A stretch of 64,000 nucleotides of DNA from Centroscyllium fabricii. Lineage: Eukaryota. The position numbers and the translations under genes were made by a program. The stretch lies in assembly GCA_051313645.2 (NCBI GenBank), contig JBNRSN020000028.1, forward strand, positions 9,982,001 through 10,046,000, given 5' to 3'. Numbering within the stretch: the first letter of the stretch is position 1; every line of letters starts with the position of its first letter. Under the pieces are notes generated by a model, which ran no database searches, had not been told where the DNA came from, and was given only the letters and a program-made list of their open reading frames with translations. Shown here piece by piece: positions 383-63,745 of this stretch.

Positions 383-660
383 GATTTGGTGAGTCCTGTG
401 CACGGATGTATAACTGGTAGTCTTACCTGTTTAAGGCATAATAAATATGTCTGGCTTGGGTTATAAGCAGAATACATTTTTAAAAATATACAGTCACATA
501 AGCCTAATAATTAGCAATGGTTAATTAAAATGGGTTGTGCAGATAGTTTCATAATAATGAGAATGAGTGATACCAAGTATTCAAATATAACCCCCAGACA
601 GAGCAGCAATCTCCTAAAGTTAGTCTGAAGGGAGTTTTTGCTAAAGAGCGCATTGCTGTG

Positions 661-723
661 TGAATGCTGGTGGTAACTATAAGCTGCTCTTTGGAAAAGG
701 GACAACGTTAACGGTGGAGCCAA
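661..723 (+). CDS. TRAJ: J1, family A: NAGGNYKLLFGKGTTLTVEP
   Basis: Nonamer agtttttgc 633-641, 12-bp spacer, heptamer tgctgtg 654-660, donor gtaggt at 724. Confidence 0.92.
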
Positions 724-885
724 GTAGGTATTCATGAATGACTATTTACTTACAAATATGTGTGCGTTCTCTATACTGCCCACACTGTATCAAATCATTT
801 CGCTATACGATCAATTAATCCTGAATATTGGAACATTTATGCAGCTTCTTATTGGAGTATGGATATGATCATTCAGTTATCATGA

Positions 886-1288
886 GGGCAGCACGGTGGC
901 ACAGTGGTTAGCATTGTTGTCTCACAGCACTGGTGACCCGGGTTCAAATCCAGCCTCAGGTACTATCTGTGTGGAGTTTGCACATTTTCCCCGTGTCTGC
1001 GTGGGTTTCCTCCGGGTGCTCCGGTTTCCTCCCACAGTCCAAAGATGTGCGGGTTAGGTTGATTGGCCAGGATAAATTGACCCTTAGTGTTAGGGGGATT
1101 GAATATGTGGGGTTACGGGGATAGGGTGGGATATGTGTCGGTGCAGGCTCGATAGGGATTGAGGGATATGGGGAGAGGGCAGGGGCGTGGTACTGGGTTT
1201 GGATGATCAGCCATGATCTCATTGAATGGCGGAGCAGGATCGAAGGGCCGAATGGCCTACTCCTGCTCCTAGTGTCTATGTTTCTATG
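886..1288 (+). mobile_element. HE1-like tRNA-derived SINE (V-SINE type), full length
   Basis: A box tggcacagtgg, B box ggttcaaatcc, core tctgcgtgggtttcctccgggtgctccggtttcctccc, CR1/HER1-like tail gggccgaatggcctactcctgctcct. Confidence 0.88.
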
Positions 1289-1976
1289 AGTGATGGTTCT
1301 GAGCAGTGCAGTTAATTGTCTGCCCATTAAGCACCTTATTTACCGAAACTGATTATGTTGAACATGATATTGGAGTATGGATATCATAATGCAGGCTTAT
1401 TGCCAGCATTATAATCTTCAATTAAAGACTACAATGCCTACAATCACCTTGAAACGAATTACCAGCTATTGACGTTACCGACAGGACAATAAAGACACAC
1501 GACTGTAATAGAACAACCTAAGCTTTCGTTAATGAACCAACCGACTGGCATTGGGAGAGAAGTGTCAGAAATCCTAGGTTAGCTCAGTTGTTGTCAGCCC
1601 GTCCTTTGAGATGGATCGGTGCGAGCTGCATCACCGCCCCATACATAAAACATGTAATGCAAGTTGATAGTCCAGGGATGAACGGAGGGAGGGTTCCAAT
1701 TTCAGGACAACTTAGGAAGCACTCGGAGAGTTCTGGTGAACAGATATTTAAATGGCAACCTTAGCTTTTTAATGCACCAGGGATAATTCATGCTTCAGGT
1801 ATCAGCAGAATATTTTTTTAAGTCATATGTGCTTAAATAATATCAATATTTATTTAAAATGGTTTGTACAGAAATTTCCATTATAATGGGATTTGGTGAT
1901 AACATGTATTCAGACAGAGCAGCAATGTACAAAAGTTAGTCTGAAGGGGGTTTTTGTCAAAGGCCGCAATGCTGTG

Positions 1977-2039
1977 TGAGTGGTGGAGCTGGAGATAAGC
2001 TTATCTTTGGAAAAGGGACACAGTTAACTGTGGAGCCAA
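1977..2039 (+). CDS. TRAJ: J2, family A: SGGAGDKLIFGKGTQLTVEP
   Basis: 12-RSS with consensus nonamer ggtttttgt; FGKG; donor gtaagt. Confidence 0.92.
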
Positions 2040-2459
2040 GTAAGTATTCATCAAGGACTACTGACTGTGTATTTACTTACATATCTGAGTGTGTTCTCTG
2101 CACTGCCCACAATGTATCAGATCATTTCTCTAAATCCAATTATGCCTGAATATTGTAGCATTTATGCAGCTCCGCATTGGAGTAGGGATATGATAGTTCG
2201 GGGAATAATGACAGATTATGCATTTGTTAATATTTTAACGTGGAATATTGATAATCCATATATATAACGTATAGTTGATTTTGTAGATAGTCAATCTGCT
2301 TGGCATCAGGTGAAGGCTTTCTGCACTGGCGGGTAATGCATTGTGTAAAATCTCAATTTATGATGTGCAAACCAAGTAATCAAACCTAACCGCCAAAAAC
2401 AGCAGGAATGAAGCGAAGTTAGTCTGAGGGGAGTTTTTACTAAAGGGAGCAATGCTGTG

Positions 2460-2519
2460 TGAATGATGGAGGTTACAAACTAACATTTGGATCTGGGACC
2501 AAACCAATGGTGCAGCCAA
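2460..2519 (+). CDS. TRAJ: J3, family B (chimeric type): NDGGYKLTFGSGTKPMVQP
   Basis: 12-RSS (nonamer agtttttac); FGSG; donor gtaaga; L->P in the G strand. Confidence 0.85.
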
Positions 2520-3215
2520 GTAAGAGAAGTTTAATTCTGTATTTTCTATTGTGATGATCACAGTCAAAATATTGTTATGTTAATAAGCATCACCAGCTCG
2601 TTATGATTAAAGGTAACTATTAGCAAAAACTGAACAGGCTGGGGTTCAGTTTTCTGGGAAAGGGAAGGCTGAAGGGTGATTAATAGAGGTCATCAACATT
2701 ATGAAGGGGTTAGAGTTATGGAACATCTTTCCACTTGTTGGGGAGACCAAAACTAGGCCTCACCTGTATAACATATTCCTTAATAAATTCAATGAAGAAT
2801 TCAGGAAAAAGTTATTTACCCAGAGAGTGCTTAGAATGTGGAACTCGCTACTACATGGAGTAGTTGATGGGACTAACATAGATGCACTTAACATAAACAC
2901 ATGAGGGGGATAGGAATAGGAGGATCTGCAGAGTGGGTTAGAAAAAGAAGGGAGGGAGGAGGCTTGTATGGAGCATAACCCCGGGCACAGAACACTTGGG
3001 CTTAATGGCCTGATTCTGCGCTGTAAATTCGATGTAATTCAATGTAAAAGTTATTTGTTATGGAAGATATTAACTCTTTGCTCATCATAAATTCAAAGGG
3101 AAAAATAAAAGTTCCTAAACTCATAAAACGGATGGTTCTTTAACAGATAACAAGTGATGCAATGTCTGCGAATGTCTGGCTGGGGAAGGTTTTAGTATGA
3201 GTATATCAGGCTGTG

Positions 3216-3275
3216 TGAATGTTGCTAATACTAAGCTTAGCTTTGGATCTGGGACCAGGCTCAATGTTATACCAA
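3216..3275 (+). CDS. TRAJ: J4, family C: NVANTKLSFGSGTRLNVIP
   Basis: ggttttagt-12-ggctgtg; FGSG; donor gtaagt. Confidence 0.9.
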
Positions 3276-3350
3276 GTAAGTGAGATGTTGAAAGATGTCT
3301 CTTTTATGTGTTAGAGCAAGTCAACAAATTAATTAAAATGTGGATCAAAG

Positions 3351-3643
3351 AATAATAATAATAATACAACTTTTATTGTCATTATACAATGTACAAGTAC
3401 ATGAGCAACGAAATGTGATCTTGCAAGCTCCCAAGAGTCCAGCAAAGCCGCTGCGCCGGTGCGCGCCGCCATTCCATCTTTCCCTCATTTCGACAATCTT
3501 CAGCCAACCGCCCCTCTCCGGGGCCCTTTTTGTGACCTTCTGCACCTGGTATTCCCTGGTGGTTACCCATCCAAGTACTAACAAGGCCTGGCTCTGTTTA
3601 GCTTCCAAGCCTTGCCACTGGCCCTGTCCCTAGTCCCAGGAAC
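3351..3643 (-). mobile_element. 5S rRNA-derived SINE-like insertion with Rex1/Babar-like tail
   Basis: Minus strand 3537-3610 matches the 3' half of 5S rRNA (ggaagctaa..gttagtacttggatggg..gggaatacc.ggtgc); ends aatgacaataaaagttg(tat)n; absent from paralogous units. Confidence 0.75.
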
Positions 3644-3745
3644 AGTGTCAGAACTGATCATTTTGCTCTGTTGCTGTCAGCCCATCCTTCGAATTGGAAA
3701 GTTGTGAGATGGATCCGCACTCTATACCGAAAACATGTAATGCAA

Positions 3746-4415
3746 GGGTGGCATGGTGGCATAGTGGTTAGCACTGTTGCCTTCGTCCAAAGATGTGCGG
3801 GTTAGGTTGATTGGCCATGACAAATTGACCCTTAGTGTTAGTTGGATTGAGTGTGTGAGGTTATGGTGATAGGGTGGGATATGTGTTGATGCAGGCTCGA
3901 TAGGGATTGAGGGATGTGGGGAGAGGGCAGGGGCGGGATACTGGGTTTGGATGATCAGCCATGATCTCATTGAATGGCGGAGCAGGCTCGAAGGGCCGAA
4001 TGGCCTACTCCTGCTCCTAGTTTCTATGTTTCGATGTTTCTATGTTTCTTACAGCACTGGAGACCCGGGTTCAAATCCAGCCTCGGGTAACATCTGTGTG
4101 GAGTTTGCACATTCTCCCCGTGTCTGCGTGGGTTTCCTCCGGGTGCTCCGGTTTCCTCCCACAGTCCAGAGATGTGCGGGTTAGGTTGATTGGCCAGGAT
4201 AAATTGACCCTTAGTGTTAGGGGGATTGAATATGTGGGGTTACGGGAATAGGGTGGGATATGTGTCGGTGCAGGCTCGATGGGGATCGAGGGATATGGGG
4301 ACATTGCAGGGACGAGGTGCTGGGTTTGGATGATCAGCCATGATCTCATTGAATGGCGGAGCAGCCTCGAAGGGCCGAATGGCCTACTCCTGCTCCTATC
4401 TTCTATGTTTCTATG
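3746..4415 (+). mobile_element. Two tandem HE1-like SINEs (internally deleted copy followed by a head-truncated copy)
   Basis: Two CR1-type tails, ending near 4045 and 4415. Confidence 0.85.
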
Positions 4416-4736
4416 TAAGGTGATATTCCAGTGCAGTACTGAGGGAGGCTTCCACTTTCAAAACTAATTGTTAAGATATCAGCGAGTTCTGCTGATCTGA
4501 TATATAAATGCTTCATAATGCACAAGAAATAATTCATGTTTGGGTTATAACCAGAGTAAAAATGTTAAATGGACATGTATGCCTAATAATTATCAATGTC
4601 CATTTAAAATGGTTTGTCGAGAAAGTTTCACAATAATGGGATGGAGTGATCCCAGGTATTCAAATATAACCGCCAGACAGAGCAATGCACTAAAGCTAGC
4701 ATGGAGGGAGTTTTTGTTAAAGGGGGCAACGCTGTG

Positions 4737-4799
4737 TGAATACTGGAGCTAGCGATAAGCTTATATTTGGAAAAGGGACAAAGTTAACCGTGGAGCCAA
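4737..4799 (+). CDS. TRAJ: J5, family A: NTGASDKLIFGKGTKLTVEP
   Basis: 12-RSS, FGKG, GT donor. Confidence 0.92.
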
Positions 4800-5678
4800 G
4801 TAGGTATTCAATAATAACTATAGACTGTCTATTTACATACATATATGTGTGTGTTCTCTGGACTGCCTACAATGCATCAAAGAATTTCTCTAAATGTTCA
4901 ATTACTCCTAAATAGTGGAACTTTTATCATTACTTATTGGAGTATGGATGTGATAATTCAGTTATCATGAGTGATGGTTCTGATCAGTGCAGTTAAGTTT
5001 CTGCCATTATGCACCTTATTAACCTAAATTGATTGTCTGAATTGAACATGATATTGGAGTATGGATATCATAATTCAGGATTATTGCCAGCATTATACCC
5101 TTCAATTAAAGACTATAATGCTCACAGTAATCTTGAAACTGATTGCCATCTATTGACGTTAACGAGAGGACAATAAAGACACACGACTGTAATAGAACAA
5201 CCTAAGCTGTCATTATTGAACCTACTGATTGACATTGGCAGGGAAAGGTGTCAGAATTCCTAGGCTTGCTGTGCTGTTGTCACTCCATTCTTTGAGTTAG
5301 AAAGTTGTGAAATGGATCCTCACTCCACACCGAAAACTGTAATGCAAGCTTATAGCCCAGCGAGGTACTGAGGGAATGTTCCACTTTTAGAAGTACTTGG
5401 GAACTATTCGGAGAGTTCTGGTGATCTGATATATAAGTGGTAGACTCAGCTTTTTAATGCACAATAAATAATTTATGCTTGGGTTACAAACAGAATAGCA
5501 TGGTTAAAACGTTATTTATGCATAATAATTATCAATGGTTATTTAACATGGTTTGTACAGATAGTTTCACAGTAATGGGATTGAGTGATCCCAGGTATTC
5601 AAATATAACCGCCAGACAGAGCAGGAATGTATTAAAGTTAGTCTGAAGGGAGTTTTTGCTAAAGGGGGAAGTGCTGTG

Positions 5679-5741
5679 TGACTGGTGGAAATCTCAACAA
5701 GCTTATCTTTGGAAAGGGAACAAAGGTAACTGTGGAACCAA
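5679..5741 (+). CDS. TRAJ: J6, family A: TGGNLNKLIFGKGTKVTVEP
   Basis: 12-RSS, FGKG, GT donor. Confidence 0.92.
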
Positions 5742-6033
5742 GTAGGTATTCATTAATAACTACAGTCTGTCTATTTAATTAAATATGTGTGTGTTCACTG
5801 CACACAATGCATCAAATCAATTCTCTAAATGTTCAATTAATCCTGAATATTGGGACATTTATACAGCTGCTTATAGGACTATGGATATGATAATTCAGGC
5901 AAAAATGGGCATTTGTATGTAATATAACGTGGAATAATGTTAAAGCATATATATAATATACAGTGGATTTTGTAGATAGTCAATTGGCCTGACATCGGGT
6001 AAAATGGTTTATGCACTGGTATGTAATGCTGTG

Positions 6034-6090
6034 TAAGTAATCTCGATAAACTAACATTTGGATCTGGGACCAAACTAATGGTGCAGCCTA
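6034..6090 (+). CDS. TRAJ: J7, family B (native RSS type): SNLDKLTFGSGTKLMVQP
   Basis: ggtttatgc-12-tgctgtg; FGSG; donor gtaagt. Confidence 0.9.
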
Positions 6091-6337
6091 GTAAGTGAAG
6101 TTTAATTCTATATATTTATTATTGTGATGATCAGAGTCAAAATATTGCTTTGTTAATAAGTTTCGTCAGTTGGTTATAATTAAAGGTAGCTATCAGCAAA
6201 GACTGAACAGGCTGGGGATAATTTCTTTCGGAAAGACATGGCTGAAGGGTGATTAATAGAGGTCTTCAACATGATGAAGGGCTTAGACTTATAGAAGGTC
6301 TTTCCACTTGCTGGGGAGACCAAAACTAGGGCTCATC

Positions 6338-6712
6338 TGTGGCGCAGTGGTTAGCACTGCTGCCTAGCAATAAGGAGCTCCTGGGTTCGAATCCTGCTTT
6401 GTCCCGGGGACCTCTCTGCGTGGAGTTGGCATGTTCTCCCCGTGTGCGTGTGGGTTTCCTCCGGGTACTCCGGTTTCCTCCGGGTACTCCGGTTTCCTCA
6501 CCCAAAGACATGCAGGTTAGGTGAATTGAAGATACTAAAAAAAAAATGCCCATGAGTATGTGTGTGAGATATAGTTCTTAGATTTGGGGGAGATATGGGC
6601 TAGGGTAGGGTAAGAGGGGGGTGCTGGGTTTGGGTGATCAGCCAAGATCTCATCCAAAATGGCGAAGCAGGCTCGAAGGGCCCAATGGCCTACTCCTGTT
6701 TCTGCGTTTCTG
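6338..6712 (+). mobile_element. tRNA-derived V-SINE, second subfamily
   Basis: tggcgcagtggttagc...ggttcgaatcc head, V core with a small internal duplication, CR1-like tail. Confidence 0.8.
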
Positions 6713-6869
6713 TAATAAATCCAATAAAGAATTCAGAAGGAAGTTATTTATCCAGAGAGTGCTTAGAAAGTGGAGCTCGCTACTTCATGGAGTAGTTGAT
6801 GACAATAGCATAGATACATATAAGATAAGAACATAAGAGAGAAAGGATCAGACGGATCTGCAGAGAAGG

Positions 6870-7338
6870 TTTTTTTAATCCATTGATGAGATTTGGGCGT
6901 CGCTAGCTGGCTAGGCCTGCATTTAGTGCCCATTCCTAATTGCCCTTGAGAAGATGGTGGTGAGCCGCCATCTTGAACCGCTGCAGTCCATATGGTGTAG
7001 GTACACCCACAATATTGAGCTAGGCCATTTCAGAGGGCATTAATAGTCAACCACATTGCTGTGGGTCTGGAGTCACATGTAGGCCAGACCAGGTAAGGAC
7101 GGCAGATTTCCTTCCCTAAAGGACATTAGTGAACCAGATGGGTTTTTGCAACAATTGACAATGGTATCATGGTCGCCATTACTAAGACTAACATTTAATT
7201 CCAGAATTAAATTGAATTGAATTTAAATTCCACCAGCTGTCGTGGTGTGATTTGAACACATATCGTCAGAGCATTTGACTGAGCCTCTGGCTTACTAGTC
7301 TAGTGACATAACCACGACGCCACCGCCACCGGCTCCCC
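6870..7338 (-). mobile_element. Unrelated tRNA-derived SINE-like insertion
   Basis: Minus strand starts ggtggcgtcgtggttatgtcactagactag...gttcaaatc and ends in an A run; absent from paralogous cassettes. Confidence 0.7.
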
Positions 7339-7601
7339 CTAAAGTAGGGGGGGAAGGGACTTGTGCGGAGCATAAATCCGGGCACAGACCAGTTGGGCCG
7401 AATGGGTTGTTTCTGTGCTGCCAATTCTATGTAAGCTGTGTAAAACTGGTTTGATATGGAAGATATTAACTGTTTGCACATCATGAAGTCAACGGGAAAG
7501 AGAAAAGTTCACAAACTCAAACAACGGAAAGTTCTTTAACCAATAACAAATCATGTACTCTCTGGCTGGGGAAGGTTTTAGGGTCAGTATATCAGGCTGT
7601 G

Positions 7602-7661
7602 TGCATCTTGCTGTTAAGAAACTGGTCTTTAGATCTGGGACCAGGCTCAATGTTATACCAA
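7602..7661 (+). CDS. TRAJ: J8, family C with altered motif (FRSG): HLAVKKLVFRSGTRLNVIP
   Basis: ggttttagg-12-ggctgtg; first Gly of FGxG is Arg; donor intact; may be non-functional. Confidence 0.8.
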
Positions 7662-8180
7662 GTAAGTGAACTGTTTAAGGATGTTTGTTTTATGTGTTAG
7701 AGCATAACAGAGAAGCAGGTCAATAAAGTAATTGAAATAAGAATCAAATGGAGTAAAGTGACAGCAATTATAACTTTGCTCTGTTGCTGTCAGCCGATCC
7801 TTGAGTTAGAAAGTAGTGAGCTGGATCCTCACTCTATACCGAAAACATGCAATGCAAGGTGGTAGTCCAGCGCAGTACTGATGGAGGTTTACATTTCCAG
7901 AACTACTTGGGAAGCCTTGAGGGAGTTCTGGTGAACTGATATATAAATGGTAGCCATAGAGTATTAATGTAAAAAGTAAGTTCTGCTTGAGTGATAAACA
8001 TAATATATATTTAAAACAGAGATACCCAATAAATAACAATGGCCATTTGAAAACGGTTTCTGCAGATAGCCTCACAATTATGTTATTGAGTGATACCAGG
8101 TAGAATATAACCGCCAGAAAGATCAGCAATGAACTAAAGTTAGTCTGAAGGGAGTTTTTGCTAAAGGGTGCAATGCTGTG

Positions 8181-8243
8181 TGAATGTTGGAGCTATCAAC
8201 AAGCTTACCTTTGGAAAAGGGACAACGTTAACTGTTGAGCCAA
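8181..8243 (+). CDS. TRAJ: J9, family A: NVGAINKLTFGKGTTLTVEP
   Basis: 12-RSS, FGKG, GT donor. Confidence 0.92.
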
Positions 8244-8663
8244 GTAGGTATTCAGTAGTAACTACAGGCTGTCTATGTACTTACATATATGTGTATGATC
8301 CCTGCACTGCTAACACTGTATTAAATAATTTCTCTAAATGTTCCATTTTGACTGACTATTGGAACATTTATGCCGCGTCCTGTTGGAGTAGGGATATGAT
8401 AGTTCGGGAATAATGCAAGATTAGAAGTATGTTTCCAGTTTACCTGGAATATTGATAGTGCATATATATAACGTACAGTTGATTTCGTTGATAGTCAATC
8501 TGCTTGGAATCAGGTAAAGGGTTTCTGCACGGGCATGCAATGCGTTGTGCATAATCACAATTTATGCTGTACAAAACAAGTATTCAAACATAACGACCAG
8601 GCAGAGCAGGAATGGACTAAAGTTAGTCTGAAGGGAGTTTTTGCTAAAGGCTGCAATGCTGTG

Positions 8664-8723
8664 TGAATGTTGGAAGCTTCAAACTAACATTTGGACCTGG
8701 GACCAAACTAATGGTGCAACCAA
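8664..8723 (+). CDS. TRAJ: J10, family B (chimeric): NVGSFKLTFGPGTKLMVQP
   Basis: A-type 12-RSS, FGPG, GT donor. Confidence 0.9.
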
Positions 8724-8819
8724 GTAAGTGAAATTTAATTCTGCATTTGTCCATTATGTTGATCACAGGCAAAACCATTGTTTTGTTAATAAGTACTATC
8801 AGTTCGTTACAATTAAATG

Positions 8820-9240
8820 TAACTATCAGCATAGACTGAACAGGCTGGGGATCAGTTCTCTGGGAAAGAGAAGTTTGAAGGGTGATTAATGAAGGTCTTC
8901 AACATTATGAAGGGGTTAGACTTAGAGAAGATCGCTCCAGTTGTTGGGGAGACAAAAACTAGGGCTTCTCTGTATGATATAGTCATTAATAAATCAAATA
9001 ACGAATTCAGGAGAAAGTTATTTAACCAGAGAGTGCTTAGAATGTGGAACTCGCTACGATATGGAGTACTTGATGGGAATAGCATAGATGCATTTAAGAT
9101 AAGCACATGAGGGGGAAAGGATTAGAAGGATCTGCAGAAAGGGTTTGATAAAGTAGGGAGGGAGGAAGCTTGTGTGGAGCATAATCCCGGGCACACACCA
9201 GTTGGGCCGAATGGATTGTTTCTGTGCTGCCAATTCTATG
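8820..9240 (+). mobile_element. Decayed CR1/HER1-like LINE 3' fragment; representative of the copy present after every family B segment (16 copies)
   Basis: Degenerate translation such as KVFNIMKGLD..FRRKLFNQRVLRMWNSL resembles the CR1 ORF2 C-terminus; tail gggccgaatgg..tttctgtgctg. Confidence 0.8.
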
Positions 9241-9423
9241 TAATTTTATGTAAAGGTTATTTGGTATGGAAGATATTAACTCTTTGCACATCATAAATTC
9301 AAAAAGGGAAAGAAAAAAGTTCCAAAACTCAAAAAACTGGTGTTTCTTTAAGAAATAAGAAGTGATGTAATATCTGGGAATGGCTGGCTGGGGAAGGTTT
9401 TAGTATCAGTATATCAGGCTGTG

Positions 9424-9483
9424 TGAATCTTGCCAATGATAAGCTGCTCTTTGGATCTGGGACCAGGCTCAATGTTATACCAA
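9424..9483 (+). CDS. TRAJ: J11, family C: NLANDKLLFGSGTRLNVIP
   Basis: C-type 12-RSS, FGSG, GT donor. Confidence 0.92.
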
Positions 9484-9595
9484 GTAAGTGAGATGTTTAA
9501 GGATGTCTGTTTTATGTGTTAGAGCATAAAAGAGAAGAAAGTTAACAAATTAATTAAAATGTGGATCAAATGGAGAAAAGTGTCAGAAATCATAA

Positions 9596-9725
9596 CTTTG
9601 CTCTGTTGCTGTCAGTCCATCCTTGGAGTTAGAAAGTAGTGAGATGGATCCTCACTCTATACTGAAAACATGTAATGCAAGGCGATAGTCCAGCGCAGTA
9701 CTGAGGGAGGGTTACATTTTCAAGA
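9596..9725 (+). mobile_element. Decayed SINE head resembling a Deu-domain (SacSINE1-like) element; representative copy, found upstream of most family A segments
   Basis: gagttagaaag-ttgtg...cactc...ccagcgcagtactgagggag; resemblance recalled from memory, not aligned. Confidence 0.5.
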
Positions 9726-10003
9726 AGAACTACTTGGGAATCAATCGGAGATTTCTGCTGAACTGATACATAAATGGTAGCCTTTGTGCATTAATGAAAA
9801 AGGTACGCTTACCCTTGAGTGGTGAACAGAAAATATTTTTAAAAATCAGAGATACCTAATAAATAGCAATGGGCATTTGAAAACGGTTTCTGCAGATAGC
9901 ATCACAATTATTGCACTGAGTGATCCCAAGTGTTCAAATATAACCGCCAGAAAGAGCAGCAATATATTAAAATCAGTCTGAAGGGAGTTTTTGTTAAAGG
10001 GGG

Positions 10004-10066
10004 TGAATGATGGAGGGTTCAGTAAACTTATCTTTGCAAAAGGCACAAAGTTAACTGTGGAGCCAA
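10004..10066 (+). pseudogene. TRAJ: J12, family A pseudo-segment: NDGGFSKLIFAKGTKLTVEP
   Basis: About 10 bp deleted between nonamer and coding start, removing the heptamer; FGKG changed to FAKG. Confidence 0.85.
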
Positions 10067-10381
10067 GTAGGTATTCATTACTAACTATAGACTGTTTACT
10101 TACTGACATGTGTGAGTGTGTTCTATCAACTGTCCACAAACGTTTTCTCTATATGATCAATTAGTCCTGAATATTAGAACATTTTTGGCGCTTATTATTG
10201 CTGTATAGATATGATAATGCAGGTATCATGAGTGATGTTGGATTAACGCAAGAATATGCACTAGTTAATAATTAACCTAGAATACTGATAATGCCTAAAT
10301 ATAACAAGCAGTTCATTTCATAGATAGTCAACGTGGTTGGCATCAGGTAAAAGGGTTTAGGCACTGGGATGTAAGGCTGTG

Positions 10382-10438
10382 TGAATAATCTCAATAAACT
10401 TACATTTGGATCTGGGACCAGACTAATTGTGCAGCCAA
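10382..10438 (+). CDS. TRAJ: J13, family B (native): NNLNKLTFGSGTRLIVQP
   Basis: ggtttaggc-12-ggctgtg; FGSG; GT donor. Confidence 0.88.
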
Positions 10439-15382: not shown

Positions 15383-15395
15383 CTTCTTTCTTGTG

Positions 15396-53275: not shown

Positions 53276-53335
53276 TGAATGATGCAACTTACAAGGTTAT
53301 CTTTGGAAAAGGGACAAAGTTAACTGTGGAGCCAA
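53276..53335 (+). CDS. TRAJ: J66, family A: NDATYKVIFGKGTKLTVEP
   Basis: 12-RSS (tactgtg), FGKG, donor gtatgt. Confidence 0.9.
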
Positions 53336-54270
53336 GTATGTATTAATTAATAACTGTAGACTGTCTCTTTACTTAGATATATGTGTGTGTTCTCTGACCG
53401 ACTGACAATGTGTCAACTAATTTCTCTAAATGTTCAATCAATCCTGAATATTGGAACATTTAAGTCGCTTCCTTTTGGTGTGAGCGTATGGTAATTTACT
53501 TATTTTGGGATGGTTATGCGAAGTGCAGTTAACTTTCTGCCATTGTGAACATCATTAACTTAAAATGATGATCTAAATTGAGCATGATTACCTGGATCCA
53601 TTTTCCTTTAGGAAAAGCCAGATAATGTTGTGTATCAACAACAACAACTTACATTATCAACGAAAGTTTCACACCGAACAACATAAAGAAATATTAGAAT
53701 GGCTGATCGAAAGCTTGAATCAGCGCATGGGTCTTAAGGAGAGTAATAAAGCAGGAGAGAGAAACAAAGAGGCGGAGAGGTTGAGGGAGTCAATGACAGA
53801 GCTTTGTGCCTAGGTAGGTGGACCAACTGGCTGAAGTTTGGAGAGACAATTGTCAGAAATCTTAACTTGGCTCATTTGCTATCAGCTCAACATTTGCGTT
53901 GGAAGGTTGTGTGTTGGACCCACATTCTGGAGAAATATATAATCCAAGATGATAGTCCAGGGAATTACAGAGACACCGGAGCACATTCAGAGGAACTTGG
54001 CAATATTTCCGAGAGTTCTGATGAACTGACATATAAATGGTAGCCCAACATTTTTAATGAACAATTAATAAGCTATTCTTGGGCCAAAACCAGGCTTCAA
54101 ATGTCATGTGTGCCCAATAATTGTCAATGGCCATTTAAAATTATTTGTACACGTAGCTTCAAAATAATGGGATTGAGTGATCCTAAGTATTCAAATATAA
54201 CCGCCAGACAGAGCTGCAAGGTACTAAAGTGAGTCTGAGGGGAGTTTTTGTTATAGGGCTCAATGCTGTG

Positions 54271-54333
54271 TGAATGCTGCAGTTACCAATAAGCTTACCT
54301 TTGGAAAAGGGACAAAGGTAACTGTTGAGCCAA
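54271..54333 (+). CDS. TRAJ: J67, family A: NAAVTNKLTFGKGTKVTVEP
   Basis: 12-RSS, FGKG, GT donor. Confidence 0.92.
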
Positions 54334-54958
54334 GTAGGTATTCATTAATAACTATAGACTGTCTATGATCAGCCATGATCTCATGGCTGACTCCTGCTGC
54401 TGTCTTCCATGTTTCTATGTACTTACATATATGTGTGTGTTCTCTGAACTGCCTACAATGTACCAAATCATTTCTCTATATATCCAAATAATTCTGAATA
54501 TTGGAGCATTTATGTCGCTTCTTATTGGAGTATGGATATGATAATTCGATTATTTTGTGATGATTATGGGAAGTGCGGTTAAGTGTCTGCCATTGTGAGC
54601 CCATTAACTTAAAATGATGATCTGAATTGAACATGATTATCTGCATCCATTTTCCTTTGGGGAAATGCCAAATAATGTTGTGTATTACACAACAACAACG
54701 GGGTTCTGATGAACTGATATATAAATGGTTGCCCTACATTTTTAATGAACAATTAGTAAGTTGTTCTTGGGTATAAACAGGCTAAAAACAGTCATGTGTG
54801 CCCAATAATTCTCAATGGTCATTTAAAACGATTTGTACAGATAGTTTCGCGATAGTGGGATCGAGTGATCCCAACTGTTCAAATATAACCGCCTGACAGA
54901 GCAGCAATGTATTAAAGTGAGTCTGGGGGGAGTTTTTGTTAAAGGGAGCAATACTGTG

Positions 54959-55018
54959 TGAATGATGCAACTTACAAGGTTATCTTTGGAAAAGGGACAA
55001 AGTTAACTGTTGAGCCAA
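54959..55018 (+). CDS. TRAJ: J68, family A: NDATYKVIFGKGTKLTVEP (same peptide as J66)
   Basis: 12-RSS, FGKG, GT donor. Confidence 0.92.
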
Positions 55019-55381
55019 GTAGGTATTCATTAATAACTATAGACTGTCGTTTTACTTACATATATGTGTGTGTTCTCTGCATTGCCCACAATGTACCAAA
55101 TCATTTCTCTAAATGTCCAATTAATCCTGAATAGTGGAACGTTTATGGTCTTCTTATTGGAGTATGGATTTCATAATTCAGGTATTATGAGTGATGGATC
55201 TGATCAGTCCAGTTAATTTTATACCATTGTGCATCTTCTTAATCTAAAATTATGCTCCAAATTGAACACGATCAGCCCAATCGATTTTCCTTTGGGAAAA
55301 TGTTAAATCATGTTGTGTATTAAACAACAACGACAATTACTTGAATTATCAACCACAATTTCACCCCGAGCCACATAAAGA

Positions 55382-55594
55382 TATCTTAGCAATGCTCAGC
55401 AGATCAGGCAGCATCTGTAGAGAGAGAAAACACGTTAGCGTTTCAGGTCAAGGGCTCTTCGTCAGAACTGGCGAAATTATGACGAATGTCCATCCACCTG
55501 AAACGTCTCTACGGATGCTGCCTGACCTGCTGAGTATTTCTAGAATGTGCCGCTTTTATTTCATATTTCCAGCATCCGCAGTATTTGGCTTTTG
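55382..55594. mobile_element. Penelope-type imperfect inverted-repeat insertion with a decayed hammerhead core
   Basis: Arms ctcagcagatcaggcagcatc / gatgctgcctgacctgctgag; minus strand CTGACGA..GAAA at 55441-55465. Confidence 0.6.
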
Positions 55595-55900
55595 TAAAGA
55601 AATATTAGAATGGCGGGTCAAAAGCTTGCTCCTGCAGCAGCTAGATCTTAAGGAGGAGAGAGAAATAAAGAGATGAAGAGGTTTCGGGAGAGAAAGCCAG
55701 ACCTTGGTGCCGAGGTCGGTGGACCAACCGACTGAAACTGCGAGAGAAAAGCGTCAGAAATCATGCCTTTGCTTAATTTCTGACAGCCCATCCTGTATGT
55801 TAGAGAGTTGTGAGATGGATCCACACTCCAGAGATGACACAGCAAATCCAAGATGATAATCCGAGGAATTACTGAGGGAGGGTTCCACTTTCAGAGATGC

Positions 55901-56348
55901 TTCTTCAGCTATGAAGAGAGACTGGACAGGCTGGGGTTGTTTTCCTTGGAGCAGAGAAGGCTGAGGTGGGACCTGATTGAGGTGTACACAATTATGAGGG
56001 GCATAGATAGGGTGGATATAAAGGAACCTTTCCCCTTGGCAGAGGGGTCAATAACCAGGGTGCATAGTTTCAAGGTAAGGGGCAGGAGGTTTAGAGGGGA
56101 TTTGAGGAAGAACTGTTTCACCCAGAGGGTGGTTGGAATCTGGAACTCACTGCCTGAAAGGGTGGTAGAGGCAGGAACCCTCACAACATGCAAGAAGCAT
56201 TTAGATGAGCACTTGAAATGTCACAGCAGACAAGGCTATGGACCAAATGCTAGAAAATGAGATTAGAATAGACAGGACTTGATGGCCGGTGCGGACACGA
56301 TGGGCTGAAGGGCCTCTTTCTGTGCTGTATAACTCTATGACTCGATGA
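55901..56348 (+). mobile_element. CR1 LINE 3' fragment
   Basis: SYEERLDRLGLFSLEQRRLR.DLIEVY.IMRG..FTQRVVGIWNSLP plus tail. Confidence 0.92.
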
Positions 56349-56621
56349 AATCTATTGGCGAGCTCTGATAAGCTGATATTTAAATGGTAGCTCTACATTT
56401 TTAATGAAAAAGATAAAACAAGTCATGCTTAGGCTATTAACAGGTTAAATATAGTCATGTGTGCATAATAATTACCAATGGTCATTTGAAATGATTTGTA
56501 CCGATAGTTTCACAACAATGGGATTGGGTGATCCCAAGTTTTCAAATATAACCGCCAGACAGAGCAGCAATGTACTGAAGTTAGTCTGAAGGGTGTTTTT
56601 GTTAAAGGGCGCAATGCTGTG

Positions 56622-56684
56622 TGAATGCTGGAGGTTTCAATAAGCTTACCTTTGGAAAAGGGACAAAGTTAACTGTGGAGCCAA
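56622..56684 (+). CDS. TRAJ: J69, family A: NAGGFNKLTFGKGTKLTVEP
   Basis: 12-RSS, FGKG, GT donor. Confidence 0.92.
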
Positions 56685-56867
56685 GTAGGTATTCATTAAT
56701 AACTATAGAAGTCTATTCACTTACATATATGTGTGTGTGTTATCTGAACGGCTGACAATGTATCAAATCATTTCTCTATATGTTCAATTACTCCTGAATA
56801 GTGGACCATTAATGCCACATCTTATTGAAGTATGGATATGACAATTCAGATAATCTGGGTAATAATA

Positions 56868-57261
56868 GGGTGGCACGGTGGCACAGTGGTTAGCACTGTT
56901 GTCTCACAGCACTGGAGACCCGGGTTCAAATCCGGCCTCGGGTGACTATCTGTGTGGAGTTTGCACATTCTCCCCGTGTCTGCGTGGGTTTCCTACGGGT
57001 GCTCCGGTTTCCTCCCACAGTCCAAAGATGTGCGGGTTAGGTTGATTCGCCATGATAAATTGACCCTTAGTATTAGGGGATTAAATATGTGGGGTTACGG
57101 GGATCGAGTGGGATATGTGTTGATGCAGGTTCGATAGGAATCGAGGGATATGGGGGAGGGCAGGGGCGGGATACTGGGTTTGGATGATCAGCCATGATCT
57201 CATTGAATGGCAGAGCAGGCTCGAAGGGCCGAATGGCCTACTCCTGCTCCTATCTTCTATG
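56868..57261 (+). mobile_element. HE1-like SINE, full length (3' end reduplicated at 57418-57525)
   Basis: A/B boxes, core, tail. Confidence 0.88.
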
Positions 57262-57563
57262 AGTGATAGTTCTGATCAGTGCAGTTCATTGTCTGCCATT
57301 GTGCACATTCTTATTTTAAAATGATAATCTGAATTGAACATGATTACCTTTTGGATTCTGCCAAATAATGATGTGCATTAAACAACAGCAACCTGTATCA
57401 TCAAACAAAATTTCACAGGGAGGGCAGGGGCGGGATACTGGGTTTGGATGATCAGCCATGATCTCATTGAATGGCGGAGCAGGCTCGAAGGGCCGAATGG
57501 CCTACTCCTGCTCCTATCTTCTATGAGTGATAGTTCTGATCAGTGCAGTTCATTGTCTGCCAT

Positions 57564-57608
57564 GCCCCGGCCTGCTAGTCTAGAACGCCCGATCCCAAGT
57601 TGACCTCG

Positions 57609-57641
<33 letters not shown>

Positions 57642-57783
57642 GGATGGGAGACCATCGGGGAAGACCAGGTGCAATAGCAGGCAGTGACCACGGAGGAGGC
57701 GCTAACGCGCGGTCAAAAAGCAGACCGTTAACCGGTCTGTTAAAAACTCCATCCACCACTTCGAAAGAAGATACGACAAGAAG
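57564..57783 (+). mobile_element. 5S rRNA-derived SINE (SINE3-like) with 12-bp target-site duplication
   Basis: cgcccgatc..tcggaagctaagcag.gtcaggcctggtcagtacttggatgggagacc..ggaa.accaggtgc; TSD attgtctgccat at 57552-57563 and 57784-57795. Confidence 0.82.
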
Positions 57784-58520
57784 ATTGTCTGCCATTGTGC
57801 ACATTCTTATTTTAAAATGATAATCTGAATTGAACATGATTACCTTTTGGATTCTGCCAAATAATGATGTGCATTAAACAACAGCAACCTGTATCATCAA
57901 ACAAAATTTCACAGCAAGCCACCTACAGAAATATTGCAGTGGCTAATCGAAAGCTTGATTCACAACGTAGGTTTTAAGGAGCGTCTTAAAGGGTGAGAGT
58001 GAGTTAAAGGGATGAACAGGTTTGGGTGGGGGGGGGGGGTGGATTCCAGAGCTTGCTGCCTAGGTAGCTAGACCAACCGACCGAAATTTAGAGAGACTAA
58101 TGTCAGAAATAATAACTTGGCTCAAATGCTGACAGCCCATTCTGTGCATTAGAAAGTTGTAAGATGAATCCACGCTCTAGAGAAACATATAATCCAAGCT
58201 GATAATCCGGGGAAGTACAGAGAGACTGGAGCACTGTCAGAGTTACTTGACAATCTTTTAGTGTGTTAGGATGAATTGATATATAAATAGTTGCACTGCA
58301 TTTTAATGAACAATTAATAAGTTATTGGGTTATTAAAAGGCTGCTTAAAAATGTCAAGTGTGCCGAATAATTCTGAATGGTCATTTAACACGATTTTTAC
58401 AGACAGTTTCACAATAATGGGACTGAGCGATCCCAAGTATTCAAATATAACCGCCTGACAGAGCAGCAATGTACTAAAGTGAGTCTGGGGGGAGTTTTTG
58501 TTAAAGGGCGCAGTGCTGTG

Positions 58521-58580
58521 TGTATGCTGGATCCAACAAGCTTATCTTTGGAAAAGGGACAAAGTTAACTGTTGAGCCAA
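58521..58580 (+). CDS. TRAJ: J70, family A: YAGSNKLIFGKGTKLTVEP
   Basis: 12-RSS, FGKG, GT donor. Confidence 0.92.
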
Positions 58581-59205
58581 GTAGGTATTCATTAATAAAT
58601 ATAGACTGTCTATGATCAGCCATGATCTCATAGCTGACTCCTGCTGCTATCTTATATGTTTCTATGTACTTACATATATGTGTGTGTTCTCTGAACTGCC
58701 TACAATGTACCAAATAATTTCTCTATATGTTCAAATAATCCTGAATATTGGAACATTTATGTCGCTTCTCCTTGGAGTAAGCATGTGATAAATCAGTTAT
58801 ATTGTGATGGTTATGCAAAGTGGAGTTGCATGTCTGTCATTATGCATCACATTGACTTATAATGATGATCTGAATTGAACATGATTACTTGGATCCATTT
58901 TCCTTTGGGAAAATGCCAAATAATGTTGTGTATTAAACAACAACAACAACTGATTTCTGATTAAAGACATGAATGGTTGCCCTACATTTTAATGAACAAT
59001 TAATACGTTATTGTTTGGCTGTAAACAGGTTAAAATAGTCACGTGTGCCTAATAATTCTCAATTTGACTTTTACATGGTTTGTACAGAGAGTTTCACAAT
59101 AATGGGATTGGGTGATACCAAGGATTCAAATATAACCGCCAGACAGAGCAGCAATGTACTAAAGTTAGTCTGATGGGAGTTTTTGTTAAAGGGCGCAATG
59201 CTGTG

Positions 59206-59265
59206 TGAATGATGGAACTAGGAAGCTTACCTTTGGAACAGGGACAAAGTTAATTGTGCAGCCAA
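59206..59265 (+). CDS. TRAJ: J71, family A: NDGTRKLTFGTGTKLIVQP
   Basis: 12-RSS, FGTG, GT donor. Confidence 0.92.
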
Positions 59266-60193
59266 GTAGGTATTCATTAATAACTTCAGACCGTCTGCTT
59301 ACTTACATATATGCGTGTGTTCTCTGAACTGCTGACAATGTACCAAATCATGTTCAATTAATCCTGAATAGTGGAACATTTATGTCGGTTCTTACTGGAA
59401 TATGGATATGATAATTCAGGTATTTTGTCATGGTTATGGGAAGTGCAGTTAATTGTCTGCCATTGTGAACCTCATTAAGTTTAAATGATTATCTGAATTG
59501 AACATGATTACCTGGATCTATTTCCCTTTGGGAAAACGCCAATAAATGTTGTGTTTTAAGCAACAACAGCTCGTATTACCAAACAAAATTTCACACCGTG
59601 CCACATAAAGAAATATTAGGACAGGTGACCAAAAGCTTGGTGCCAGAAGGTAGGTTTAAATGAGCGTCTTAACAGAGGAGAGAGGCATAGTTGGAGAGGC
59701 TTAGGGAGAGAATGCTTGACCTTGGTACCTTTGTAGCTGAACCAACCGGCTGAAATTGGGAGATAACATTGTCAGAAATCATAACTTGGCTCAATTGCTG
59801 CCAGCCCATCCTGTGTGTTGGAAAGTTGTGAGGTGGATCCCCACACTCGAGATGAAACATATAATCCCAGATGTTAATCCAGGGAAGTGCTGAGGGTGGG
59901 CTCCACTTTCAGAGGTAACTGGAAACTTACTGGAGGTTTCTGATGAACTGTTATATAAACGGTAGCCCTACATTTTTAATGAACAATTAATAAGTTATTC
60001 CTGGGCTATTAACAGGCTTAAAAAAGTCGTGTGTGCCTAATAATTATCAATGGTAATTTAAAATGATTTGTACAGATGGTTTCACAATAATGGGGTTGAG
60101 TGATCCCAAGTATTCAAATGTAACCAACAGACAGAGCAGGAATGTGCTAAAGTTAGTCTGGAGGGAGTTTTTGTTAAAGGCCGCAATGCTGTG

Positions 60194-60256
60194 TGAATGA
60201 TGGAACTCTCAACAAGCTTATCTTTGGAAAAGGGACAAAGTTAACTGTTGAGCCAA
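60194..60256 (+). CDS. TRAJ: J72, family A: NDGTLNKLIFGKGTKLTVEP
   Basis: 12-RSS, FGKG, GT donor. Confidence 0.92.
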
Positions 60257-60832
60257 GTAGGTATTCATTAATAACGATAGACTGTTTATTTACTTACATA
60301 TATATGTGTGTGTTCTCTGCACTGCCCCGAATGTATCAAATCATTTCTCTATATGTTCAATTAATCCTGAATATTGGAACAATTATGTCGCTTCCTATGG
60401 GAGTAAGCATGTGATAAATCAGTTATTTAGTGATTGTTTTATGAAGTGCAGTTAAATGTCTGTCATTATGAACCACATTAAATTAAAATGATGATCTGAA
60501 TTGAACATGATTACTTGGATCCATTTTCTTTTGGGAAAATGCTGAATAATGTTGTGTATTAAGCAGTAACAACAACTGATTTCTGCTTAAAGATATATGG
60601 TTGGTTGCCCTACATTTTAATGAACAATTAAAAGTTACTCCTGGCCTATTAACAGGTTAGAATAGTCATGCGTGCCTAATTATTCTCAATGGTCATTTTA
60701 AATGGTTTGTACAGATAGTTTCACAATAATGAGATCCAGTGATACCAAGTATTAAAATATAACAGGCAGGCAAATCAGGAGTGTATTAAAGTTAGTAGGG
60801 AGGGAGTTTTTGTTAAAGGGCGCAATGCTGTG

Positions 60833-60892
60833 TGAATGATGCAACTAACAGGCTTATCTTTGGAAAAGGGACAAAGTTAACTGTGGTTCCAA
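60833..60892 (+). CDS. TRAJ: J73, family A: NDATNRLIFGKGTKLTVVP
   Basis: 12-RSS, FGKG, GT donor. Confidence 0.92.
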
Positions 60893-61389
60893 GTAGGTAT
60901 TCATTAATAACTATAGACTGTTTATTTACTTACATATATGTGTGTGTTCTCTGCACTGCCCAGAATGTATCAAATCATTTCTCTGTATGATCAATGAATC
61001 CTGAATATTGGAACATTCTTATTGGAGTAGGGATATGCTCATTCAGCTACCATGCGTTATGGTTCTCATCAGTGCCGTTAATTGTCTGCCATTATGCACC
61101 TTCTGAACCCTAAATAATTTTTTGAATTCAACATGATTCCCTGCATCCATTTTCCTTTGGGAAAATGCCAAATAACGTGATGCAATAAGCAACAACAACA
61201 AATTGCATTATTAAACCTACTTCACACCGAGACAAATCAACAAATGTTAGGATGATTGTTCATGAGCTTGCTCCAGTGAATAGGCTTTAAGCAGCGTTGT
61301 AAATGAGGAGGGTGAGATATGGAGGTGGAGAGGTTTACGGAGAGAATGTCAGACCTCGGTGCCTCGGTAGCTGAACCAACCGACTAACA

Positions 61390-61823
61390 TTACAGTCATA
61401 GAGTTATACAACACAGAAAGAGGCCCTTCAGCCCATTGAGTCCGCGCCGGCCACCAGGCCCTGTCTATTCTAATCGCATTTTCAGCATTTGGTCCGTAGC
61501 ATTGTATGCTATGGCATTGCAAGTGCTCACCTAAATGCTTCTTGAATGTTGTGAGGGTTCCTGCCTCTACCACCCTTTCAGGCAGTGAGTTCCAGATTCC
61601 AGCCACCCTCTGGGTGAAAAAGGTCTTCCTCAAATCCCCTCTAAAGCTCCTGCCCCTTACCTTGAAACTATGCCCACTTGTTATTGACCCCTCTACTAAG
61701 GGGAAAAGTTCCTTTCTATCTGCCCTATCTATGCCCCTCATTATTTTGTCCACCTCAATCAGGTCCCCCCTCAGCCTCCTCTGCTCCAAGGAAAACAACC
61801 CCAGCCGGTCCAGTCTTTCTTAT
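61390..61823 (-). mobile_element. CR1 LINE 3' fragment
   Basis: FSLEQRRLRGDLIEV..FFTQRVAGIWNSLP. Confidence 0.92.
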
Positions 61824-62259
61824 TAGGAGAGAAAAGAGTGAGAAATCATAACTTGGCTCAATTGCTGCCAGCCCATCGTCTGTGTTGGGAAATTATGAAA
61901 TGCGTCCACACTCTCGAGATCAAACATAGAATCCAAGATGATAACTCAGGGAAGTACTGAGGGAGGGTTCCAATTTCAGAGGTAATTGAAAAGTTACTGG
62001 AGGATTCTGATGAACTGACATATAAATGGTAGCCCAACATTTTTAATGAACAATTAGTAAGTTATTCCTGAGATATTAAGAGGCTTAAAAAGTCATGTGT
62101 GCCTCATACTTATCAATGGTCATTTTATATAGTCTGTAAATATCGTTTCACAATAATGAGATTCAGTGATACCAAGTATTCAAATATAACAGGCAGACAA
62201 AGCAGGAAAGTATTAAAGATAGCCTGGAGGGAGTTTTTGTTAAAGGGCGCAATGCTGTG

Positions 62260-62319
62260 TGAATGATGCAACTAGCAGGCTTATCTTTGGAAAAGGGACA
62301 AAGTTAACTGTGGTTCCAA
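62260..62319 (+). CDS. TRAJ: J74, family A: NDATSRLIFGKGTKLTVVP
   Basis: 12-RSS, FGKG, GT donor. Confidence 0.92.
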
Positions 62320-62814
62320 GTAGGTATTCATTAATAACTATAGACTGTTTATTTACTTACATATATGTGTGTGTTCTCTGCACTGCCCAGAATGTATCAA
62401 ATCATTTCTCTGTATGATCAATTAATCCTGAATATTGGAACATTCTTATTGGAGTAGGGATATGCTCATTTAGCTACCATGCGTTATGGTTCTCATCAGT
62501 GCCGTTAATTGTCTGCCATTATGCACCTTCTTAACCGTAAATAATTTTCTGAATTCAACATGATTCCCTGCATCCATTTTCCTTTGGGAAAATACCAAAT
62601 AACGTGATGCAATAAGCAACAACAACAAATTGCATTATCAAACATACTTCACACCGAGACAAATCAACAAATGTTAGGATGATTGTTCATGAGCTTGCTC
62701 CAGTGAATAGGCTTTAAGCAACGTTATAAATGAGGAGAGTGAGATATGGAGGTGGAGAGGGTTAGGGAGAGAATGTCAGACCTCGGTGCCTCGGTAGCCG
62801 AACCAACCGACGGA

Positions 62815-63249
62815 CATTACAGTCATAGAGTTATACAGCACAGAAAGAGGCCCTTCAGCCCATTGCGCCCACGCCGGCCACCAAGCCCTGTCTATTCTAA
62901 TGCCATTTTCAGCATTTGGTCTGTAGCATTGTATGCTATGCATTTCAAGTGCTCATCTAAATGCTTCTTGAATGTTTTTAGGGTTCCTGGCTTCACCACC
63001 GTTTCAGGCAGTGAGTTCCAGATTCCAACCACCCTCTGGGTGAAAAAGTTCTTCCTCAAAACTCCTCTAAAGCTCCTGCCGCTTACCTTGAAACTATGCC
63101 CCCTTGTTATTGACCCCTCTACTAAGGGGAAACGTTCCTTTATATCTACCCTATCTATGCCCCTCATAATTTTGTCCACCTCAATCTGGTCCCCCCTCAG
63201 CCTTCTCTGCTCCAAGGAAAACAACCCCAGCCTGTCCAGCCTTTCTTAT
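62815..63249 (-). mobile_element. CR1 LINE 3' fragment, co-duplicated with the J73/J74 unit
   Basis: Same boundaries and flanks as 61390-61823. Confidence 0.92.
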
Positions 63250-63685
63250 TAAGAGAGAAAAGTGTCAGAAATCATAACTTGGCTCAATTGCTGCCAGCCC
63301 ATCGTCTGTGTTGGGAAATTATGAAATGTGTCCACACTCTCGAGATCAAACATAGAATCCAAGATGATAATTCAGGGAAGTACTGAGGAAGGGTTCCAAT
63401 TTCAGAGGTAATTGGAAAGTTACTGGAGGGTTCTGATGAACTGACATATAAATGGTAGCCCAACATTTTTAATGAACAACTAGTAAGTTATTCCTGGGCT
63501 ATTAACAGGCTTCAAAAGTCATGTGTGCCTAATAATTATCAATGATCATTTAAAATGGTTTTTACAGATAGTTACACAATAATGAGATTGAGTGATACCA
63601 AGTATTCAAATACAACCGCCAGACAGAGCAGGAAAGTATTAAAGATAGCCTGGAGGGAGTTTTTGTTAAAGGGTGCAGGGCTGTG

Positions 63686-63745
63686 TGAATGTTGGAACTA
63701 ACAAGCTTATCTTTGGAAAAGGGACAAAGTTAACTGTGGAGCCAA
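63686..63745 (+). CDS. TRAJ: J75, family A: NVGTNKLIFGKGTKLTVEP
   Basis: 12-RSS (ggctgtg), FGKG, GT donor. Confidence 0.92.

Follow-up and report, generated by a model that had tools for sequence, protein, structure and literature searches.

The window analysed here, a 64,000-nucleotide stretch of Centroscyllium fabricii DNA (contig JBNRSN020000028.1, positions 9,982,001 to 10,046,000 of the forward strand), contains an array of 75 J gene segments between positions 633 and 63745, all on the + strand. We think it likely that the window covers the interior of a fish T-cell receptor alpha (TRA) J cluster, shaped by amplification of a founder A-B-C block, by an exchange that gave rise to a chimeric class, B1, and by diversification of the complementarity-determining region 3 (CDR3). 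The novelty lies in the chimeric class and the selection signal, together with a duplication history that is simple and readable; the gene count is unremarkable. An earlier sequence-only reading of this DNA had counted the same 75 segments and expected the array to be incomplete, and both of its ends do run past the window edges.

Three J families recur in a fixed order

A relaxed scan for a recombination signal sequence (RSS) and an FGxG motif gave 76 rows, 73 of which were kept. The rows removed were 17959, which is segment 17957 shifted by 2 nt, and 20649 and 22268, which lack FGxG or a splice donor. Profile and blastn searches recovered two further segments, at 9986 (heptamer deleted) and 52534 (heptamer ending in GTC), and found no more J in the window beyond these. 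The segments fall into class A (n=45), class B (n=16, divided into B1, n=9, and B2, n=7) and class C (n=14). The class rule alone placed segment 59178 in B1, but its flanks are A-type and it was assigned to A. Coding identity is 0.84–0.90 inside classes and falls to 0.63–0.68 when A, B and C are compared; B1 and B2 are 0.80 identical. All 75 coding sequences are distinct and they specify 71 different peptides; 70 segments are fully intact: the frame is open, FGxG is present, the donor is GT and the heptamer ends in GTG.

The classes are not arranged at random. Of the 55 steps between neighbours in the first 56 units, 43 go from A to B, from B to C or from C to A, compared with a mean of 17.9 and a maximum of 33 in 100,000 shuffles. 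The order proposed from the letters alone, which begins AABC AABC ABC AB-, ends in AAABC and is followed by 19 A, matches ours letter for letter, both AB- cassettes included. Of 32 bins, 31 have a GC skew above zero (cumulative +4.98), which repeated same-strand units would be expected to produce.

The segments have the anatomy of J-alpha genes

A strict RSS scan found 37 matches with a 12-bp spacer, all on the + strand, and none on the − strand or at spacers of 11, 13 or 22–24 bp. The nonamer-12-heptamer arrangement is kept in 74 of the 75 segments, and the heptamer ends in GTG in 73. The published J-alpha nucleotide pattern (PMC10322711) is 34 nt long; as printed it has 33 nt, one position short, and gives no match. 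Applied as 34 nt, it matches 67 of the 75 segments, only on the + strand, and has no match in 100 base shuffles of the window. TG stands directly after the heptamer in 69 of 74 segments, the RSS is positioned in frame in 66 of the 67 pattern-matched segments (98.5%), and the entropy of the first 5 nt is 2.0 bits. According to the accessible parts of the survey that supplied the pattern, the corresponding values are 92–97% and 2.3–3.2 bits in five sharks, and 73% and 6.1 bits for human J-alpha (PMC10322711). Spacing in the window, at ~940 nt per J, lies within the 880–1320 nt of the five sharks; teleost rows in the same source are mostly at 400–900 nt, and gar also matches the window in both spacing and RSS phase. 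The C segment at 29532–29617 has no TG after the heptamer (58 nt) and, of the segments intact in other respects, is the only one whose signal is out of phase.

Comparison with PDB leans the same way, if less clearly. The C profile has alpha chains, or a construct of alpha and beta, as its top 17 matches, and one A peptide matches mostly TCR alpha chains, both with modest E-values for a short query. From J geometry and these matches, the most likely reading is that the segments are TRAJ, as had been proposed. Several observations weigh against it. The top match of the A peptide is a delta-chain construct, with several delta chains next; no credible V, D or C exon or motif lies within the 64-kb window; and a protein-database search with two 41-codon stretches, one containing an A segment and one a C segment, yielded three candidates each, of which none was a match at E up to 10, and no shark TCR, which is weak evidence. 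Because the window holds no V, D or C exon and no shark receptor was matched, TRA membership is very likely rather than proven.

It is most improbable that the segments belong instead to an expanded J array outside TRA, whether TRD, TRG or immunoglobulin light chain. The missing constant exon and the likeness of A-type ends to delta J in the PDB matches would fit such a locus, as would the salmon TRDJ, DKLTFGKAINLIVEP (PMC8559430). However, fish TRD loci described in the accessible passages carry one or two J (PMC8656973, PMC12529555, PMC8559430), and the TRG and light-chain J numbers given in PMC10322711 are much lower. In J number and span, as in TG start and RSS phase, the array matches the J-alpha survey, and the + strand of the window shows no D or V signal and no heptamer-first RSS.

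B1 segments combine an A-type signal with a B-type body

Nine of the 16 B segments form the B1 class, in which a ~119-bp A-type patch, comprising the signal and the 5' codons, sits in a B gene. The two parts of these segments have different relatives (71 of the 75 segments used): the RSS and the 62 nt upstream are 0.78 identical to A and 0.37 to B2, whereas the last 43 coding nt and 20 intron nt are 0.89 identical to B2 and 0.60 to A. An orphan B-type signal, with 14 nt of B coding sequence after it, lies 114–116 nt upstream in eight B1 segments and 320 nt upstream in the ninth, which has a later insertion. The orphan heptamer ends in TTG in all nine. These RSS-like matches were considered as additional J and rejected, as they have no FGxG and end in TTG. 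A unique 215-bp insertion (16610–16824) lies just upstream of the B1 signal at 16840, in place of part of the A-type patch.

The simplest reading of these sequences is that a single ~119-nt A-type insertion or conversion entered a B gene, which was then amplified. A single origin is weakly supported, however, at 61/83 on the LINE tree, and it is absent from the 3' tree. The B signal may have been lost either before or after the patch arrived. B1 would represent a route to new J genes through a swap of signal and 5' end. The earlier proposal of three founder J segments thus holds in that the founders within the window are few, but it missed this fourth class, derived from A and B.

In all A, the 60 nt upstream of the RSS are less diverged (0.19) than the flank farther out (0.30), and this stretch goes along with the B1 patch. 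It may contain a germline promoter or accessibility element.

The array grew by duplication of blocks

Direct self-matches cover 94.5% of the window at least once, in agreement with the claim that spacers can be aligned across copies. Long blocks are mostly 75–90%, and up to 93%, identical; the closest pairs reach 93.9–95.6%. The spacer between two A segments consists of the A downstream flank followed by the A upstream flank. The A-upstream, A-to-B and B-to-C spacers are not mutually alignable, which rules out a recent origin of the three families from a single copied unit.

Retroposons in the spacers order these events. An old long interspersed element (LINE) fragment lies behind all 16 B segments and was therefore in the founder block before amplification. 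This marker and the 43 of 55 ordered transitions bear out tandem amplification of an A-B-C block. Copies of the LINE fragment are 0.157 apart (10 of 16 copies, those without later internal insertions). We call the fragment CR1-like from its likeness to the LINE piece used in a database search; that search gave 123 matches, of which the named ones are avian CR1-type at about 42–51% identity, and Pfam gave no credible match for five LINE pieces from the window. A young short interspersed element (SINE), presumably like the shark/ray V-SINE HE1, has 21 matches in the window, in both orientations; its seven full + copies are 0.058 apart. The V-SINE HE1 family is named in PMC4824008. By sequence alone, J spacing and this presumed SINE likeness point to a non-teleost, probably cartilaginous, fish. 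Since the young SINE sits at differing offsets, most amplification preceded its spread. Some was later, as indicated by the common LINE insertion of the A pair 60805 and 62232. A short SINE remnant (54365–54420 and 58612–58667), 32 nt behind each of the A segments 54243 and 58493, marks a duplication within the A-only tail.

Both cassettes that lack C have deletions beginning at reference-spacer position 524 and ending at 780 and 791, 11 nt apart; they may go back to a single event that was duplicated later. The upstream flanks of A group by position (Mantel r 0.25, p 0.0005; 37 of 45 A), and their distances are uncorrelated with those of the downstream flanks (r 0.08, p 0.19). The PHI test detects recombination in C (p 0.001, 13 of 14 segments) and in A at window 100 (p 0.013, 37 of 45). 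Together, the PHI signals and the uncorrelated A flanks suggest sequence exchange among paralogues. Against this, PHI is not significant for A at window 30 (p 0.39), for B1 (6 of 9) or for B2 (6 of 7).

The array had also been called satellite-like, a description that does not survive. Tandem Repeats Finder reports just eight short arrays and nothing of long period within its 500-bp limit, gaps between units vary from 342 to 1899 nt, neutral divergence is ~16%, the coding sequence is under selection, and later retroposons lie inside the array. Block identities of 75–96%, five defective J and two C deletions are instead features of birth-and-death evolution.

An assembly artefact, with unpurged haplotypes or read-error copies placed in tandem, would explain part of the array at best, and we regard it as the least probable of the readings weighed here. 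In its favour, identity is about 94% in three block pairs and 95.6% in a fourth, and shark TRA regions are often absent from assemblies, the accessible survey tables giving no J count for 5 of 10 cartilaginous species (PMC10322711). However, all coding sequences differ, most blocks fall below the identity of these pairs, and retroposon positions are copy-specific. An artefact is unlikely because no exact repeat is longer than 246 bp and because the differences obey codon logic, gathering in CDR3 codons and sparing framework 4 (FR4), which errors would not do.

CDR3 codons change faster than their surroundings

Selection was analysed in 34 disjoint equal-length pairs paired by far upstream flank, which cover 68 of the 75 segments (five odd-length and two unpaired segments excluded). 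Differences per site are 0.149 in the near flank, 0.303 at replacement and 0.174 at silent sites of the CDR3 core, and 0.040 at replacement and 0.111 at silent sites of FR4. In 27 of the 34 pairs, core replacement is above the flank (p 0.0008); it is also above the silent sites of the core (p 0.014). The strongest class is C, with core replacement of 0.51 against 0.10 at silent sites (p 0.002); in A, core replacement lies above the flanks (p 8e-8). Parsimony counts on upstream-flank trees give, for the core, p 0.003 for A63, p 0.04 for A60, p 5e-5 for C and p 0.5 for B1. FR4 is under purifying selection.

These results have to be set against several others. In A, core replacement does not differ significantly from its own CDR3 silent sites (p 0.23), B shows no selection signal (p 0.58), and over the whole 5' part only C is significant (A, p 0.22 and 0.08). 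In addition, the Fisher tests assume independent sites, recombination makes the pairs not fully independent, and the near flanks are possibly constrained too. The case for diversifying selection on four to five CDR3 codons is therefore good but not final.

A neutral CDR3 in the same TRAJ array would require that the excess change come from short gene-conversion tracts or from local hypermutability, for example at hotspots of the activation-induced cytidine deaminase (AID) type. The uncorrelated A flanks are in keeping with frequent exchange, silent sites in the CDR3 of A are raised as well (0.22), and in the A upstream flank WRC/GYW sites differ at 0.175 (13 sites) against 0.11 at other C/G (24 sites), a raw difference. 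We nevertheless consider neutrality unlikely. Conversion is unable to push divergence over the family mean, and all-pair CDR3 replacement reaches 0.41 in A (63 nt) and 0.50 in C, above the 0.15–0.30 of the flanks and the 0.157 of the old LINE. The contrast between replacement and silent sites in C also speaks against it. Germline AID hypermutation, for its part, is not supported by the AGCT control: among 44 A segments, 1 has an A in place of the silent G in an AGCT hotspot just downstream. Hotspots in the flank do, however, vary a little more than other sites.

A model for the origin of the array

In the reading that we favour, amplification followed by diversifying selection, the founder A-B-C block would already have carried the LINE fragment and existed beside a lone A unit of ~0.9 kb. 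Rounds of unequal crossing-over would have multiplied both, while deletions and exchange among paralogues occurred now and then; the duplication itself is observed, the mechanism is presumed. One exchange would have placed the A-type patch in a B gene, and the resulting B1 would then have been amplified, with loss of GTG from the stranded B signal. In the duplicated copies, purifying selection would have held FR4, signals and frame, and diversifying selection would have altered four to five CDR3 codons, so that near-identical copies became 71 peptides. By established biology, RAG would cut at each 12-RSS and join a V-alpha with a 23-RSS to one J, whose donor would be spliced to TRAC. The conserved TG after the heptamer would supply the microhomology described for fish TRA joints. 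In bamboo shark, the accessible data report microhomology in 28% of TRA joints, and in 46% of those without insertions (PMC10322711). Because fish TRA joints lean on microhomology, selection could plausibly act on the variety of germline J.

A broader proposal, that in this lineage most ancestral J-alpha were replaced by copies of three founders and that CDR3-alpha diversity was rebuilt by positive selection on four to five codons and by swaps of signal plus 5' end, is put forward tentatively, as we judge it somewhat less probable than its opposite. Mammalian J-alpha are generally considered too diverged to reveal how their array originated. If the proposal is true, this locus is a dated natural experiment in the birth and diversification of J-alpha arrays, with spacers that can still be aligned, and the bamboo-shark periodicity described below suggests that cartilaginous fishes may normally renew their J-alpha in this manner. 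The neutral spacers serve as a built-in clock, against which germline CDR3-alpha selection is directly measurable (core ~2x flank, FR4 ~1/4).

Features of the window

Table 1. Coordinates of the J segments and associated elements in the window
Feature	Position	Strand	Description
J array	633..63745	+	75 segments: nonamer-12 bp-heptamer, 56-66 nt coding, splice donor
Cassette region, (A)n-B-C blocks	633..43088	+	56 segments: 26 A, 16 B, 14 C
A-only tail	43575..63745	+	19 segments, spacing about 0.7-1.0 kb where insertion-free
A example, KLxFGKGTxLTVEP type	633..723	+	45 copies
B1 example	2316..2519	+	orphan B-type RSS 2316, A-type patch with RSS 2432, B-type 3' coding
B1 RSS starts	2432, 8636, 16840, 19829, 21863, 23900, 28762, 31007, 38203	+	
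Orphan B-type RSS	2316, 8520, 16520, 19713, 21747, 23784, 28646, 30891, 38089	+	
B2 example	6006..6090	+	own B-type RSS, 57 nt
B2 RSS starts	6006, 10354, 13899, 26564, 33696, 36376, 41807	+	
C example, FGSGTRLNVIP type	3188..3275	+	
C RSS starts	3188, 7574, 9396, 14642, 17957, 20826, 22836, 24651, 29532, 31771, 34454, 37144, 38962, 43004	+	
Pseudogene A	9986..10066	+	heptamer and part of spacer deleted; FAKG
Pseudogene B2	33696..33779	+	FGxG hit by 1-nt deletion
C with donor AT, not GT	14642..14729	+	
C with FRSG, not FGxG	7574..7661	+	
A with heptamer end GTC	52534..52624	+	
Cassette without C	10354..11833	+	~255-nt deletion across C segment
Second cassette without C	26564..28339	+	~265-nt deletion
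Recent tandem duplication, A-A-B2-C block	31950..37320	+	offset about 2.68 kb; 93.9% identical
Recent tandem duplication, A unit and LINE insertion (61394-61821, 62821-63247)	60700..63545	+	94.4% identical
Old CR1-like LINE fragment, example	2630..3045	+	about 110 nt downstream of B where insertion-free
Young ~400-bp SINE, example	886..1288	+	

The spacers hold further insertions. Behind B1 19829, an insertion of about 220 bp (19957–20178) contains an inverted repeat that is 96.8% identical over 186 nt, with an apparent short target duplication; it looks like a miniature inverted-repeat transposable element (MITE) or a fold-back SINE. A 5S rRNA-derived element (57570–57683, + strand; Rfam RF00001, 55 bits) lies inside a ~220-bp insertion, with a partial copy at 3541–3609 on the − strand, and is probably a 5S-derived SINE. 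This SINE head is the only 5S-like match in an Rfam scan of the window, and a tRNA search found none. A single-copy fragment of a non-LTR (long terminal repeat) retroelement at 27582–28124 (− strand), with a 132-aa open frame at 27711–28109, differs from the CR1-type pieces and has no Pfam match. A young LINE 3' end occurs twice (15495–15930 and 63850–64000), the copies being 97% identical and in opposite orientations.

Comparison with known systems

Statements about published arrays in this section refer to the accessible parts of the sources. The J number of the window is ordinary for sharks; the sequence-only reading had taken the array as large, against about 61 J in human TRA. The window has a pattern-based count of 67 J in 63 kb, and the same kind of count gives 66 in 59 kb for catshark, 73 in 64 kb for zebra shark, 63 in 72 kb for nurse shark, 84 in 111 kb for bamboo shark and 156 in 138 kb for epaulette shark (PMC10322711). 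Annotated TRAJ number 125 in 55 kb in catfish and 111 in zebrafish (PMC8656973), and 128 in Atlantic salmon (PMC8559430).

Shark TRA J clusters resemble the window in J number and span (63–156 J over 59–138 kb), TG start, a mostly in-frame RSS and low 5' entropy; the survey gives J counts and coordinates, and its accessible parts are silent on J families, on their cassette order, on chimeras and on selection (PMC10322711). We analysed its bamboo-shark coordinates, using 96 of the 139 TRAJ rows (011–106) and excluding rows before a 34-kb gap or past TRAC. Its gaps alternate: near-equal gaps number 16 at lag 2, against a shuffle mean of 6.5 (p 3e-4), and 11 at lag 4, against a mean of 1.4 (p 1e-4), and the gap series 1161-904-465 is repeated exactly. 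Because these coordinates are periodic, cassette amplification is probably not limited to the source lineage, and by analogy cassette duplication of J-alpha probably also occurs in other sharks. The expansion had been proposed as lineage-specific; that claim is weakened by this periodicity, which compares coordinates, not sequences. Past TRAC, the same table (supplementary file 15) has another 33 rows resembling J, many of them on the − strand.

No description of the A-B-C order, of chimeric J or of selection on germline J codons was found in the literature, subscription journals falling largely outside the search and figures being able to hold some. The same negative holds for the accessible text of PMC5931798, PMC12529555, PMC12227049, PMC12698447, 10.1101/2024.09.05.611428 and PMC4824008. 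Four J motifs of the window were not found in the supplements of PMC5931798 or the readable supplements of PMC10322711.

Human and mouse J-alpha segments are mutually divergent. They share with the window the 12-RSS, FGxG and 34 nt from F to the donor, but differ in their high 5' entropy and loose RSS phase (PMC10322711). Mouse Traj comprises about 60 segments, all orthologous between the strains compared (10.1101/2024.09.05.611428). Atlantic salmon TRAJ mostly have trout counterparts, and a three-gene cassette is not mentioned in the accessible passages (PMC8559430). Channel catfish TRAJ, like the window, form one large array, and TRA diversity is ascribed there to many minimally trimmed J (PMC8656973). 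At 75% identity, however, catfish TRAJ divide into 21 subgroups (the largest of 12) and 54 singletons, whereas three families and one chimera cover all 75 segments of the window. Tandem multi-gene copies with pseudogenes are familiar from block duplications such as the mouse Trav triplication (10.1101/2024.09.05.611428) and the catfish TRDV2-TRAV1-TRAV1-TRAV4 block. Those known block duplications concern V genes, whereas the blocks duplicated in the window consist of J genes.

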